Shown: one piece after another, positions 5,301-26,035 of the stretch
How the letters are laid out: each line of letters starts with the position of its first letter
How positions within the stretch are numbered: the stretch's first letter is position 1
DNA from: a virus
Length of the DNA stretch: 64,000 bases
IMG/VR virus record: IMGVR_UViG_3300044615_000494
Direction: 5' to 3' (one strand)
Notes under the pieces: generated by a model
Seen by the model: the letters and a program-made list of their open reading frames with translations, nothing else
What the model was told of the DNA's origin: nothing
The model's database searches: none
Translations under genes and position numbers: made by a program

Positions 5301-7613
5301 ATGAAAATAAATGTAATAAAAAGGTCTGGAAAGACAGAACCACTCGCCGTTGAAAAATGGCAACAACAAGTAGCAAAAGTATGTAATGGAATAGCAGACA
5401 TCTCTCAGTCCATGATTGAGATCAAAGCACAGCCCCACTTTTATGACGGTATAACCACAAGAACTATTGATGAGATCACTCTACGCGCCATAGTAGACCT
5501 TATCGATATCGAACATAATCCAGATGTAGGACATACTAATTATCAATATGTTGCTGGTAAGCAACGTCTTAGCATGTTACGTAAAGATGTCTATGGGCAG
5601 TATAATCCTCCACACTTGTTTCAGATAGTAAAAAAGAACATAGAGTCCGGACTCTATACCAGCGAATTACTTGATTGGTATAGTGAAGATGATTGGAATA
5701 AGATGGAAGAATTCATCGATCATGAGAAAGATGAACAATACAGTTATGCCGCTATTGAACAATTGATTGAGAAATATCTTGTACGCAACCGTGCTACAAA
5801 AGAGATTTATGAGACTCCCCAAGTTCGCTATATGGTCGCTGCCGCGACTGTGATGCACAAAGAAGATAAGAGTCAAAGACTAAAATATGTAAAGGAATAC
5901 TATAATGCTTCTAGTGATGGTTTGTTCACTCTTGCTACTCCTGTACTCGCTGGCCTCGGAACACCGACCAAACAGTTTAGTTCTTGCGTTCTTATCCGTA
6001 GTGATGATGACCTTGACAGCATTTTTGCATCAGGTGAGATGATGGCTAAGTATGCTAGCAAACGCGCTGGCATTGGCCTTGAGATAGGTAGATTGCGCCC
6101 ATTAGGTAGTCCTATACGCGGTGGCGAAGTTATGCACACGGGAATGATACCTTTCTTGAAGAAGTGGTTCGGAGATTTACGCAGTTGTTCACAAGGAGGT
6201 ATTAGAAATGCAAGTGCTACAGTATTTTATCCCATTTGGCATTATCAGTTTGATGATCTTATTGTTCTTAAGAACAATCAAGGAACCGAAGAAACCCGAG
6301 TCCGTCATATGGATTATGGGGTTGTGCTTAGTAGTTTCTTCTGGAGACGATTCAAAAACAGAGAAAACATAACATTTTTTGACCCCAACGAAGTTCCAGA
6401 CTTATACGAAGCATTCTATTCAGATTGCGCGAAGTTTGAAGAACTTTACGTCAAATATGAGAAACGTAAAGATTTACGCAAGAAAACCATGAATGCTGAA
6501 GATGTGTTCAAGGGTGGCATATTAAAAGAAAGAACTGACACGGGACGTATCTATTTGGTATTCATAGATAATGTCATGAACCAAGGGCCGTTCGACCCGG
6601 AATACCATACAATTTATCAAAGTAACCTTTGCTGTGAAATTCTGCTTCCTACTAAATCTTTTAAGCGTCTTGACGATCATAACGGTCGAATTGCACTTTG
6701 CACTCTGGGGTCCATTAACTGGGGCGCATTCAGAAACCCTGAAGATATGCGTAGAGCTTGCCGCGTTCTACAGCGTAGCCTATGCAACATACTGGACTAC
6801 CAAGATTTCTTAAGCATACAAAGTAAACTAAGCAATGATGAGATTCAACCATTAGGCATTGGTGTAACTAATCTAGCATACTGGCATGCCAAACGCGGAA
6901 TGCGATATGGTGAGAAAGATAGTTTGCAAGAAGTTAAGACTTGGATGGAACATCAGGCATTTTATCTCACAGAAGCAACAGTTGAACTTGCTAAAGAGCG
7001 CGGCAAGTGTGTAGATAGTGACAAGACACGTTATGGTCAAGGTAAGTTTCCATGGGAGTTACGTGCTAAAGGCGTGAATGAACTTGCTAATTTCACCCCT
7101 GAACTCGACTGGGAATCGTTGAGAAAGGAAATGAAACAACATGGGGTACGAAACGCAACACTTATGGCCATTGCTCCTGTTGAGTCTAGTTCTGTGGTTA
7201 TTAATAGTACTAATGGTATTGAGATGCCTATGTCACTTATCTCAGTTAAGGAGAGCAAGGCTGGATCTTTTACACAAGTTGTACCCGAATATCAAAAGTT
7301 AAAAAATAAATATGAGTTGATGTGGGAACAGAAAGATTGTTTAGGTTATATCAAGACCTCAGCAGTATTGGCAGCATACGTAGATCAAAGTATATCAACA
7401 AACACATTCTACAATCCCGCACATTTTACAGATCGCAAAGTTCCTACTACGTTGATAGCAAAGAATTTAATGCTGGCTCATCAATATGGATTGAAGACTT
7501 TCTATTACAGCCTCATCAATAAGGCTGGGTCTAGAGTTGTAGAAGAAAGCCATGAAGTTGTTAAACAAGAAGTATTTGAAGAAGATGGCGATTGCGAGTC
7601 TTGCAAACTTTAA
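5301..7613 (+). CDS. nrdA: ribonucleotide reductase class Ia alpha subunit with N-terminal ATP cone
   Basis: VIKRSG ATP cone, TPVLAG, SSCVL, QSNLCCEI, LKTFYY, C-terminal CESCKL. Confidence 0.97.
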   Translation: MKINVIKRSGKTEPLAVEKWQQQVAKVCNGIADISQSMIEIKAQPHFYDGITTRTIDEITLRAIVDLIDIEHNPDVGHTNYQYVAGKQRLSMLRKDVYGQYNPPHLFQIVKKNIESGLYTSELLDWYSEDDWNKMEEFIDHEKDEQYSYAAIEQLIEKYLVRNRATKEIYETPQVRYMVAAATVMHKEDKSQRLKYVKEYYNASSDGLFTLATPVLAGLGTPTKQFSSCVLIRSDDDLDSIFASGEMMAKYASKRAGIGLEIGRLRPLGSPIRGGEVMHTGMIPFLKKWFGDLRSCSQGGIRNASATVFYPIWHYQFDDLIVLKNNQGTEETRVRHMDYGVVLSSFFWRRFKNRENITFFDPNEVPDLYEAFYSDCAKFEELYVKYEKRKDLRKKTMNAEDVFKGGILKERTDTGRIYLVFIDNVMNQGPFDPEYHTIYQSNLCCEILLPTKSFKRLDDHNGRIALCTLGSINWGAFRNPEDMRRACRVLQRSLCNILDYQDFLSIQSKLSNDEIQPLGIGVTNLAYWHAKRGMRYGEKDSLQEVKTWMEHQAFYLTEATVELAKERGKCVDSDKTRYGQGKFPWELRAKGVNELANFTPELDWESLRKEMKQHGVRNATLMAIAPVESSSVVINSTNGIEMPMSLISVKESKAGSFTQVVPEYQKLKNKYELMWEQKDCLGYIKTSAVLAAYVDQSISTNTFYNPAHFTDRKVPTTLIAKNLMLAHQYGLKTFYYSLINKAGSRVVEESHEVVKQEVFEEDGDCESCKL

Positions 7614-22755: not shown

Positions 22756-22830
22756 CGCAGAGTGGAGAAGGGGTATCTCGTCAGGCTCATAACCTGAAGG
22801 TCGGTGGTTCGATTCCATCCTCTGCAACCA
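22756..22830 (+). tRNA. trnfM: initiator-type tRNA-fMet(CAT)
   Basis: C1:A72 mismatch, A11-U24 pair, CTCATAA loop, CCA. Confidence 0.88.
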
Positions 22831-22856
22831 ATAACTGTTGTTAAAATACAACAGGC

Positions 22857-22885
22857 TTGACAACGGGACATTTCGGCACTATAAT
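22857..22885 (+). promoter_or_regulatory. sigma70 promoter with adjacent TGTTGT-N6-ACAACA palindrome (22836-22853)
   Basis: TTGACA-17-TATAAT, perfect consensus. Confidence 0.85.
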
Positions 22886-22940
22886 ACATGTATTGATGCT
22901 GAAAAAGCGTCCCGTTCTTTAAAATACACGATTTTTTTAT

Positions 22941-23016
22941 ATACCGGTAGCTCAACTGGCAGAGTAGCGGTCTCCAAAACCGCAGGTTGGGGGTTCGATT
23001 CCCTCCCGGTATGCCA
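22941..23016 (+). tRNA. trnW: tRNA-Trp(CCA)
   Basis: GCGGT-CTCCAAA-ACCGC arm, GCCA. Confidence 0.95.
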
Positions 23017-23022
23017 AATTAT

Positions 23023-23100
23023 GTGTCGGTGGCAGAGCGGCCCATTGCAACGGATTGCAAATCCGTAAAACCGTCAGTTCAAATCTGACCCGACACTCCA
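23023..23100 (+). tRNA. trnC: tRNA-Cys(GCA)
   Basis: ACGGA-TTGCAAA-TCCGT arm, U73 CCA. Confidence 0.93.
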
Positions 23101-23627
23101 AGTTTCATCGGAAAATGGCTGTGACCACCATAACCAGCCCAGTGCTTTTGTACGGCGCAATTCTAGACAAGCCAGAGAGAGCAAACGATAGCAGGGAGAT
23201 TGCTATCCATAACGATGAGCCCTACGTTCCGGGTGTCTCCGGATAGTGTGACCCACACGATGAGAAGTAGTGTGACAACTACGGGTGGTAGTCTTTAAAC
23301 CAAAAGGCCGCTGGCAGTGCGAGAACGGTCCCTGTCGGGAAGCGGGTGGAAGGAGTGTGTGATGGGTATGATAGCGTCATATCTTGATACTCTATAATTA
23401 CCGCCGGGGGACGCAGAGCATTTTAAAATATATTAAGGGTTACCTGATCCGTTAGGTACTTTAAGAGAGGAGCACAGGGGCCGCCCTACGCAATCTTAGA
23501 GTACAGGAAGCGTATGAGTACATTGTACCGAACGTGACGGGCAGTTAGGCAGTAATGACGAAACTGAAAATATGAGAGACGGTCTCATATAGCAAGTCTA
23601 GTTCCCTTAGTGTATTTTAAAATGCTA
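23101..23627 (+). ncRNA. large ornate structured ncRNA candidate C (GOLLD/ROOL-like setting)
   Basis: ~525 nt GC-rich non-coding gap with more than 10 helices and a 22-bp closing stem containing G.U pairs. Confidence 0.65.
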
Positions 23628-23639
23628 AATTAAATATGC

Positions 23640-23724
23640 GGAGATGAAGCATCAATGGTGATGCAGTGGACTGTAAATCCGCCGCCTTCGGGCACGACTG
23701 GTTCGATCCCAGTAATCTCCACCA
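23640..23724 (+). tRNA. trnY: tRNA-Tyr(GTA)
   Basis: CTGTAAA loop, long variable arm with TTCG loop, ACCA. Confidence 0.92.
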
Positions 23725-23731
23725 AATATTA

Positions 23732-23808
23732 GCCTCAATAGCTCAGTTGGTTAGAGCATCGTCTTGATAAGGCGGGGGTCCATAGTTCGAATCTATGTTG
23801 AGGCACCA
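23732..23808 (+). tRNA. trnI: tRNA-Ile(GAT)
   Basis: TTGATAA loop, CCA. Confidence 0.93.
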
Positions 23809-24051: not shown

Positions 24052-24080
24052 TTGACAAATAGATTCTTTGATAGTATAAT
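24052..24080 (+). promoter_or_regulatory. sigma70 promoter
   Basis: TTGACA-17-TATAAT. Confidence 0.85.
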
Positions 24081-24484: not shown

Positions 24485-24561
24485 GCGTCTTTAGTTCAGT
24501 GGATCAGAATGCAACGCTACGAACGTTGAGGTCGGAGGTTCGAGTCCTTCAAGGCGCGCCA
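24485..24561 (+). tRNA. trnR: tRNA-Arg(ACG)
   Basis: CAACG-CTACGAA-CGTTG arm, GCCA. Confidence 0.95.
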
Positions 24562-26035
24562 GCCAATCATCTATTTGATTTGCTATCTTATGAATCGTGT
24601 TCCTGCTGTATTTTCTCAATGCAGGTAAATCATTTATAGGAGTTCTATTGATAGGGTGTGTGCTATCATCATTATCTTCATCAGGCATGTACATTATAGT
24701 CAGGTTAGGATTATTGATATGTTTCTGCCAAGCATGATATAGATAATCATAACGCACATCCTTCTTGAATACATCTGAGTATTTTGGTAACAGTATCAAC
24801 GCCTTTCGCTGTGTATCTGATAAACGGTTCACGAAATGTGTGATGACGTTATCAAAATATTCTTTAGTGTGATTCTTTTCAAGAGACCAATACATGCTAT
24901 AATCGAAAATAAATTCGATGTACGAAGCGAACACAATGATCTTGGGTAATTTCTCAAAATTATACTGTGAGTGATATAATTTATCAGTGCGAAACAAATC
25001 TTCTAGTGGTATATTGTAATAGATTTGATCCATATATCTGCTATATGCGGCGTATGCAGGTCCTAAACAATGCATCAAGAACGCGATAGATGGTTCTTTA
25101 ACTGAAAGATTTTCTTGACCTCTGATGAAGTTTTCTAAAGAGGAATATTCATGTACGTTGATATAATCGATATCAGCATGATCTATACAATTGCTACCCA
25201 ATAACATTTTGTATTTGGATTTCAACAATTGCATACATCGTTGTTCAATATTCATGTTCATGACTCTGCAACTAAAAACAAAATTAGTTATAGTGGCTGC
25301 GTTTAATAATGAATCACCTTTAGTTTGTATTGAGATATAACCGATCAAACCATAATAACCATACTTGTCCCATGCGAATACAGCATAACTTTTTATGTCG
25401 TTTCTGAGGATATAATCTGATACTGTGTTTTTAGCAAAGCGACTATTGGTATAGTTAAGTTGATTGGATTTATTGACTAGTTCTTCTACTCTTTCTTGAT
25501 ATAACAAACAATCATGATTCTCTGCTATCGCTATATTGATATCAGAATCTTTTAAAAATTCAATATTAGAATCATAAGATTTTCTGATATCTTTCTTTGT
25601 TTCTAATATTCTATATTGTTTTGTTTTAGTATTATTTTGGGGTATGGCAAACTCATCTATGAATTTGTATGGGTCATTGTACGTAACTATGCCTGGACAA
25701 TAATATGTTGCTTCATTGAGGTTTATCATATTATCATCGATGAATACAACATCATCCGAACGTAACTGACAATCAGATATAATTTGATTTATCCTGTTAC
25801 CTTTCGGTAGTAGATTGATGCTTGGGAAAACAAAGAGTTCCCAAATATCTAGACTCTGTAGTTTTTTCTTGATACGATCATGATCGTTTTTAGAACAGAT
25901 AGAATGTATGATACCATTCTTTTCTGTGTTTTTTATAAATTCGATGATGTCTTGATTCGGCGAAGTATCGCCGCCTTCAGTGATACTACCACTCCATAGT
26001 ACACCATCAAGATCCCAGATAACAAGTTTAACCAT
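24491..26035 (-). CDS. FkbH-like protein (HAD-IIIC phosphatase plus GNAT-like domain)
   Basis: IWDLDGVLW, SICSKND, VFIDDN..NL, DKYGYYGLIG, FSCRVMN. Confidence 0.85.
   Translation of the reverse strand: MVKLVIWDLDGVLWSGSITEGGDTSPNQDIIEFIKNTEKNGIIHSICSKNDHDRIKKKLQSLDIWELFVFPSINLLPKGNRINQIISDCQLRSDDVVFIDDNMINLNEATYYCPGIVTYNDPYKFIDEFAIPQNNTKTKQYRILETKKDIRKSYDSNIEFLKDSDINIAIAENHDCLLYQERVEELVNKSNQLNYTNSRFAKNTVSDYILRNDIKSYAVFAWDKYGYYGLIGYISIQTKGDSLLNAATITNFVFSCRVMNMNIEQRCMQLLKSKYKMLLGSNCIDHADIDYINVHEYSSLENFIRGQENLSVKEPSIAFLMHCLGPAYAAYSRYMDQIYYNIPLEDLFRTDKLYHSQYNFEKLPKIIVFASYIEFIFDYSMYWSLEKNHTKEYFDNVITHFVNRLSDTQRKALILLPKYSDVFKKDVRYDYLYHAWQKHINNPNLTIMYMPDEDNDDSTHPINRTPINDLPALRKYSRNTIHKIANQIDDWLARLEGLEPPTSTFVALHSDPLN

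Follow-up and report, generated by a model that had tools for sequence, protein, structure and literature searches.

The usual view of tRNA arrays in phages is that they supply codons or counter host defences. In a viral DNA of 64,000 nucleotides (nt) from IMG/VR (record IMGVR_UViG_3300044615_000494; the whole of it is hereafter called the window), a stretch of 539 nt at positions 23101-23639 lies inside such an array, between the genes for tRNA-Cys and tRNA-Tyr, and raises the question of what it encodes. The initial annotation proposed one ornate RNA of ~730 nt, reminiscent of the GOLLD and ROOL RNAs, that might enclose tRNA-Trp and tRNA-Cys. Our comparison with other phages indicates instead three RNA modules, named A, B and C, with separate distributions. 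We judge the 539-nt stretch to be a genuine structured non-coding RNA region, encoded on the plus strand and, as far as homologous sequences indicate, under RNA-level selection. It is probably one segment of a sigma70-driven tRNA operon in which the three modules evolve separately.

As a whole, the stretch contains no open reading frame (ORF) longer than 63 amino acids (aa), and its GC content is 47.1%, compared with 39.6% window-wide. Its predicted minimum free energy (MFE) is -177 kcal/mol (z -3.78), and none of 100 shuffled sequences was as stable. The earlier description of this DNA as GC-rich, ORF-poor and dense in helices is thus confirmed. The same holds for the consensus sigma70 promoter reported at 22857-22885, which matches the consensus at 12 of 12 positions, and for the two tRNAs (Trp, Cys) placed after it, on which ARAGORN and Rfam agree. 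Overall, the raw sequence observations of the initial annotation were largely right, while its interpretation was partly right and is partly supported by what follows. The modules are delimited as follows:

23104-23219, plus strand: module A, a predicted cloverleaf-like four-way junction with a 7-bp closing stem and three arms
23224-23420, plus strand: module B, a predicted pseudoknotted RNA of ~197 nt (82-sequence alignment, model R1)
23417-23626, plus strand: module C, a predicted RNA of ~210 nt closed by a stem of 21-22 base pairs (bp), with the near-invariant core GACGGGCAGTTAGGCAGTAATGA and variable hairpins

Distribution of the modules across phages

Homologues of module B were collected from IMG/VR with the exact 17-mer at 23327-43, which is present in at least 120 contigs, many of them 200-520 kb long. 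Boundaries were then mapped by BLAST of 23000-23760 against the 120 collected loci. Positions 23224-23436 are covered by more than 110 loci at 90-97% identity, in contrast to only 3-7 loci for 23101-23223 and only 5-6 loci for 23437-23639. Homology extends beyond B in five contigs (L062, L042, L115, L135 and L130), of which the first three represent syntenic sister phages with the same tRNA order as the window. Neighbouring proteins and tRNA sequences, when used as queries, retrieved no syntenic relatives, and the tRNA-Cys sequence retrieved two other tRNA arrays, both without the RNA modules.

Module A is confined to four sister-phage contigs (L042, L062, L115 and L144). Two further contigs, L146 and L147, were considered as carriers of A and rejected as chance matches of the 18-mer used for this module. 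The core 17-mer of module C was found in 20 IMG/VR contigs, and an nhmmer profile recognised 39 distinct copies in the fetched loci, with the window copy (23413-23631) at E 1e-55. In 29 of these 39 copies, B follows C on the same strand, 250-1900 nt further downstream, and B runs directly into C in five, all from this lineage and L130, the two modules sharing the bases AGCA. A tRNA follows within 40 nt after C in 26 of the 39 copies. Since A is restricted to sister phages, B is spread over at least 120 contigs and the 39 distinct copies of C mostly stand apart from B, the stretch does not correspond to one RNA. The proposal of a single ornate molecule of ~730 nt is accordingly replaced by three modules that, on this sequence comparison, are separate evolutionary units fused here by the happenstance of the lineage.

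A single GOLLD/ROOL-like RNA of 525-730 nt, possibly oligomeric and with the tRNAs enclosed by pairing between the leader and the 3' part, would agree with the contiguity of the modules in the window. Here, A, B and C adjoin without spacer, and the first bases of C (AGCA) overlap the conserved 3' end of B by 3-4 nt, so that these two share bases; the whole spacer also folds well (z -3.78). However, most phages have B and C at separate places and in the opposite order, and together with the evidence on the leader and on the known families given below, this makes a single RNA very improbable.

Bacterial genomes were also searched, and 54 contigs contained the exact 17-mer of B, 53 of them by chance and one with a real module B. 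This sole carrier (L155) is a 23-kb phage-like contig binned with a Haliscomenobacter metagenome-assembled genome. It contains tRNAs, a permuted transfer-messenger RNA (tmRNA) and, immediately following tRNA-Asp, a complete module B (2244-2649 and 5702-5940). This contig is probably a phage or prophage fragment, and its binning may give a hint at the host.

Predicted folds of modules B, C and A

The architecture of B comprises the hairpins P1-P5, an irregular 3' rod (23328-23412) enclosing P7, and three tertiary contacts. Covariation was counted on 82 distinct sequences. In this alignment 97.1% of cells are paired and 28 of the 51 pairs show changes on both sides, giving a covariation score of 0.373, compared with 0.143 for shuffles (none of 500 reached the observed value) and at most 0.079 for slid partners. 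The first tertiary contact is a kissing interaction between the loops of P1 and P3 (G-C in 60 sequences, A-U in 13). In the second, the ACC of the P4 loop forms a pseudoknot with an upstream GGU (U-A in 76, C-G in 3), and in the third the last base of the P5 loop pairs with position 23325 (U-A in 75, C-G in 7). The 3' rod is formed by the pairings 23328-33 with 23407-12, 23336-37 with 23405-06 and 23342-45 with 23401-04.

Most of the local helices that had been listed for this region turned out to be real. TCCGG/CCGGA, GTGTG/CACAC, GTAGT/ACTAC and GAGTGT/ATACTC correspond to the covarying helices P1, P2, P3 and P7 of B, respectively. The GCGG/CCGC helix is invariant and is considered plausible. 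In contrast, the pairing of CAGTG-CTTTTG with CAAAAG..CGCTG is not retained, because the covarying helices P4 and P5 of B use its bases and because mismatches disrupt it in sister phages.

A covariance model (R1) was built for B. Applied to the window, whose sequence is itself within the seed alignment, it found a single copy at 23224-23420 with 225.2 bits and E 7.8e-70, covering model positions 1-198 of 198, and members outside the seed (L142, L144, L139, L155 and L037) scored 173-212 bits. The core of B is near-invariant and includes conserved unpaired nucleotides. Length variation was noted as follows: an insertion of ~57 nt with two extra hairpins after GGGTGGT in L108, L109, L061, L073 and L096 (alignment columns 177-233), an insertion in the 5' half in L037, L040 and L095, and the tip of P7, which varies from 0 to ~70 nt. 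Judged from the alignment, these insertion points would be solvent-exposed tips of the fold.

Module C is closed by the inverted repeat 23417-39/23604-26. The 22-bp stem with two G.U pairs that had been singled out earlier covaries in 15 distinct homologues: of its 21 pairs in this alignment, seven show changes on both sides and five on one side, and both G.U positions alternate with A-U or C-G. Another of the listed helices, ATATGAGA/TCTCATAT, is a covarying hairpin of C with five covarying pairs in the same 15 sequences. The pairing CTTTAAGA/TCTTAGAG falls within a variable hairpin that, on reading the alignment, appears to be kept by differing sequences. As for CCUGAUCCGUUAGG, it may form either a local hairpin (CCUGA/UUAGG) or a pairing with the invariant core. 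Furthermore, GACGG/GACGA motifs occur three or four times at positions 23534-23582 and in their homologues, in several cases within hairpin loops such as an invariant AGACGGU loop, and these motifs might be repeated binding sites.

The homologues thus provide covariation in both B (82 sequences) and C (15 sequences), and both modules are assigned to the plus strand since their many conserved G.U pairs would be A.C mismatches on the other strand. The selection at the RNA level that had been suspected from the G.U pairs of the closing stem is therefore well founded. An explanation at the level of DNA, in which a promoter, a recombination or packaging site, or a decayed gene is conserved, could point to a conserved TATAAT inside B (23393-98). 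However, an internal promoter was rejected at this site because it lacks a -35 element at a usable distance, TTGATA being only 2 nt upstream of TATAAT. Compensatory changes and strand-specific G.U pairs indicate RNA, and a decayed gene is at odds with the lack of an ORF and with indels that do not come in threes, so that we give this explanation almost no credence.

For module A, the MFE topology is identical in the window and in the sister phage L062 despite ~11 substitutions (z -2.2 and -1.9, respectively). Comparison of the window with the sisters revealed a single compensatory change, from GGC/GCC to GAC/GUC, together with three one-sided changes that preserve pairing, which amounts to modest comparative support for the predicted fold. 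The listed GATAGCA/TGCTATC helix is an arm hairpin of A and is kept in the sister phages.

A relation of A to the S-domain of RNase P RNA was also considered, as CCAGTGC ... AGAGAGCAAAC plus hairpin recalls E. coli rnpB. In A, AGAGAGCAAAC and the hairpin after it (23176-23186) match the J11/12-P12 junction of E. coli RNase P RNA exactly, and B carries a GGGTGGAAGG motif that likewise recalls the rnpB S-domain. The AGAGAGCAAAC motif is, however, base-paired within A and lies outside the conserved family B. The RNase P models (RF00010 and relatives) gave no score on the region at E<=10, and a scan of IMG/VR for the two-motif pattern returned five contigs, all unrelated. Because no model matches, the motifs sit in different modules and the two-motif scan was unproductive, the link was rejected and the resemblance judged a coincidence.

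The leader and comparison with known RNAs

The enclosure of tRNA-Trp and tRNA-Cys had been proposed on the basis of two long-range pairings of the 5' leader. Both are present in this sequence: 22907-13 is complementary to 23408-14 over 7 bp, and 22918-29 to 23610-21 over 12 perfect bp, and these complements between leader and 3' part speak for a single RNA. However, the leader is missing from the sister phages L062, L042 and L115, which place the promoter cassette between tRNA-Trp and tRNA-Cys and have no leader before tRNA-Trp. Moreover, positions 23407-12, on the partner side of the 7-bp pairing, are used by the conserved 3' rod helix of B. Since the leader is absent from the sisters and the 7-bp partner is part of the rod, the enclosure is specific to the window, and the wrapping of the two tRNAs by the leader is probably fortuitous. 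The 12-nt complement (22918-22929/23610-23621) can equivalently be described as a partial copy, in the leader, of the 5' arm of the C stem, and the sister phages lack it.

A search of the whole window with Rfam 15 at gathering thresholds returned tRNAs only. When the threshold was relaxed to E<=10, regions 22800-23760 and 23095-23425 yielded tRNAs and noise only, and the divergent copies of B in L123 and of C in L038 gave tRNAs or noise only. GOLLD, ROOL, RNase P, tmRNA, introns, riboswitches and ribozymes were accordingly rejected as the identity of these modules, none having a match in Rfam 15. The stretch, compared by blastn with 50,697 GenBank phage records, gave no match of the RNA modules, and no paper describing B or C was found in the literature. 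B and C are members of two widespread lake-phage RNA families absent from Rfam 15, and the earlier suggestion of a new class agrees with the finding that none of the region falls in a family catalogued there.

GOLLD and ROOL are RNAs of phages and prophages that occur near tRNA islands and form nanocages (PMC12286853). GOLLD is often longer than 800 nt; its 3' domain is universally conserved and its 5' domain variable, and tRNAs are found in the linker of some GOLLDs (PMC12286853). The location near tRNA islands and the linker tRNAs favour the reading of the stretch as a single RNA of this type. The tRNA-island location is indeed found here, the modules lying between tRNA-Cys and tRNA-Tyr, but it is shared with other families and not diagnostic. 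GOLLD resembles the present modules in being phage-borne, lake-derived and highly structured near tRNA islands; it is, however, a single RNA often of >800 nt, whereas we find three modules of ~115-210 nt with independent distributions. The GOLLD model (RF02032, gathering threshold 150 bits) found nothing in the window, nor on the region at E<=10. As a positive control, contig G006, which carries B-C as well, has a different locus at which the same model scored 213.5 bits. There, GOLLD (L203, contig positions 16677-17143, minus strand) lies ~8 kb from the fused B-C. The model therefore works on these phages, and B-C is distinct from, and coexists with, GOLLD.

ROOL is rich in pseudoknots and has no known protein partner (PMC12286853). 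It shares with the modules its occurrence in phages and prophages near tRNA islands and its wealth of pseudoknots, but its model has ~574 positions and it forms nanocages. The ROOL model (RF03087, gathering threshold 99.1 bits) had no match in the window or on the region at E<=10, and none in five related contigs in a search without a positive control. With neither model matching even at this threshold, the likeness to GOLLD and ROOL suggested earlier was not borne out, and the absence of any match on a region whose relatives share a contig with a true GOLLD counts further against a single RNA of that type.

A parallel in genomic position is offered by phage T4, whose annotation places the stable RNA genes rnaC (species 1) and rnaD (species 2) directly beside tRNA-Arg in the tRNA cluster. 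As here, these are stable RNA genes other than tRNAs that adjoin tRNA genes in a phage tRNA operon, and they are presumably released by the same processing enzymes as the present modules would be. They are, however, shorter (139 and 119 nt, compared with ~200 nt for B and C), and homology of B to rnaC or rnaD was rejected because R1 had no match in T4 69500-74500.

Theta ribozymes are RNAs like those of hepatitis delta virus (HDV) beside gut-phage tRNAs, of which 4.5% encode CCA, and they have been proposed to act in tRNA 3' maturation (PMC10879173). They resemble B as structured RNAs that directly abut phage tRNA genes. In contrast to their small HDV fold, B has ~197 nt and another topology, follows CCA-encoding tRNAs and matches no ribozyme model. 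The ribozyme models of Rfam, HDV-like ones included, gave no match on the region, and the covariation-supported topology of B is not a nested double pseudoknot.

Finally, the closing stem of C can be compared with RNase III stems such as the rRNA operon stalks and the T7 early intergenic hairpins, in which a helix of about two turns likewise brackets a structured RNA in a polycistronic precursor. It differs from them in being AT-rich with two conserved G.U pairs, and cleavage at this stem is proposed by analogy.

Processing, possible functions and operon context

If the stretch is a sigma70-driven operon segment with separately evolving modules, the host tRNA-processing machinery would free a block of ~540 nt from the tRNA precursor. 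In this process, 3' processing after the CCA of tRNA-Cys at 23100 would create the 5' end of the block, and an RNase P cut at 23640 would set where the composite RNA ends. The 22-bp closing stem of module C could act as an RNase III-type site that separates C from A-B, and the products may be small stable RNAs, analogous to rnaC and rnaD of T4.

Several points weigh against this picture. The transcript, its processing sites and the stability of the products are all inferred from sequence; the RNase III assignment and a binding partner of B are put forward as proposals; and A-B-C could persist as a single ~525-nt RNA in this phage. In addition, the 3' rod of B is invariant or shows one-sided changes only (G.U/G-C, U.G/U-A), and as it lies partly inside the search 17-mer, its invariance is partly a collection effect.

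The position of B relative to tRNAs bears on what it might do. Of 115 loci, 46 have a tRNA CCA end only 1-6 nt (mostly 2-3) ahead of B, the tRNA being tRNA-Tyr in 23 cases, and the next tRNA follows 2-18 nt (mostly within 10) after B in 34 of the 115 loci (tRNA-Cys in 15). A promoter (TTGACT-17-TAGAAT) lies just upstream of B in L105. The sequence of B is kept whatever its neighbour, be it tRNA-Tyr, Ser or Asn, a promoter, or module A.

The close spacing to CCA would fit a ribozyme, for instance one that cleaves itself at its own 5' edge to make a tRNA 3' end. The knotted, near-invariant core with its conserved unpaired nucleotides is in line with this idea, and theta ribozymes adjoining phage tRNAs offer a precedent (PMC10879173). 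However, B has no match to any ribozyme model, HDV-like or other, its topology differs from HDV's nested double pseudoknot, and B follows module A in the window and a promoter in L105 rather than a tRNA. Furthermore, few theta-adjacent tRNAs carry an encoded CCA (4.5%), in contrast to the tRNAs here, which do. We consider a ribozyme unlikely.

A purely cis-acting role, in which the modules serve their neighbouring tRNAs as folding insulators, nuclease entry sites or stability elements, agrees with the observations that they always occur inside tRNA arrays, flush against tRNAs, and that C has a long stem whose size would suit RNase III. On the other hand, punctuation would not call for an RNA of ~200 nt that forms three tertiary contacts and keeps long invariant stretches throughout at least 120 contigs, and the sequence of B stays constant whatever its neighbours. 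This explanation is rather doubtful for the modules as a group. For B in particular, the conserved unpaired nucleotides and the compact knotted fold argue for specific binding or catalysis rather than mere punctuation, which appears less likely.

Of the roles considered for B, we tentatively favour one in trans, in which it would bind a specific partner, either a protein or an RNA, connected with tRNA or translation in the infected cell; this suggestion may well prove wrong. There is a small chance that B is a new catalytic or tRNA-recognising RNA, involved in tRNA end maturation or in docking tRNAs or a tRNA-targeting host defence factor, possibly within a chimeric A-B-C of ~525 nt.

Its 197 nt, three tertiary contacts and long invariant stretches in more than 100 uncultured large phages recommend B as a candidate for a new class of functional RNA and as a concrete target for biochemistry. 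Phage tRNA arrays also carry conserved, intricately folded and uncatalogued RNA genes, in some genomes beside GOLLD. The locus further bears on annotation, as what looks like a giant ornate RNA in a phage tRNA region can turn out to be several independent modules in a row.

The promoter at 22857-22885 opens a predicted transcription unit extending across the tRNAs and the RNA modules as far as ~24046. Its order is promoter, leader, tRNA-Trp, tRNA-Cys, the 539 nt of 23101-23639, then tRNA-Tyr, Ile, Met, His and Phe, with the next promoter at 24052. The elements around the modules are:

22835-22854: hairpin upstream of the promoter (TGTTGT..ACAACA)
22857-22885, plus strand: sigma70-type promoter TTGACA-17-TATAAT
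22892-22940, plus strand: 5' leader, not conserved, with a small hairpin (22895-22911) and 12 nt that could pair with the 3' arm of module C
22941-23016, plus strand: tRNA-Trp, CCA anticodon (ARAGORN; Rfam 64.5 bits)
23023-23100, plus strand: tRNA-Cys, GCA anticodon, encoded CCA end (ARAGORN; Rfam 57.5 bits)
23627-23639, plus strand: spacer of 13 nt between module C and tRNA-Tyr (from the sequence)
23640-23721, plus strand: tRNA-Tyr, divergent class II, GTA anticodon (Rfam tRNA 36 bits; no ARAGORN call)

Near-consensus promoters with at most one mismatch occur at ten sites in the window, all on the plus strand, compared with 1.27 expected (20382, 22857, 24052, 26214, 37709, 38208, 52412, 55761, 57205 and 57899). 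Four are perfect (22857, 24052, 26214 and 37709), each ahead of a tRNA cluster, and the tRNA array is thereby divided into short sigma70-type units. Several of the remaining near-consensus promoters have in common a TTTGGG motif directly after the -35 element. The hairpin-plus-promoter cassette, located at 22835-22885 upstream of tRNA-Trp here, is found between tRNA-Trp and tRNA-Cys in sister phages (L062 4553-4634) and appears to move as a unit.

The window contains 30 tRNAs, 29 detected by ARAGORN and the tRNA-Tyr by the Rfam tRNA model alone. This tRNA-Tyr (23640-23721), missing from the earlier account, forms the 3' bound of the region and has an acceptor-stem mismatch. The same slot is occupied by a quite different, canonical tRNA-Tyr in the near-identical strain contig L006 (2700-2790) and in the sister phages. 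Despite the differing tRNA-Tyr, the flanks of the slot are ~100% identical, and the difference looks like an allele replacement by recombination.

The source is an uncultured large phage with genes for ribonucleotide reductase, a PstS-like protein, a porin, and radical-SAM, FkbH-like and tail-fibre proteins. No close relative was found among the 50,697 GenBank phage records, in which the DNA-level matches were tRNA genes only. A 756-aa ORF of the window had no tblastn match among GenBank phages, and a cupin-like ORF had none in IMG/VR. The FkbH-like/HAD-IIIC gene lies inside the tRNA array at 24491-26035 on the minus strand. Its homologues stand in non-syntenic contexts or on contigs too short for use; those with 48-51% identity occur in unrelated phage contexts, beside radical-SAM and carbamoyltransferase genes.

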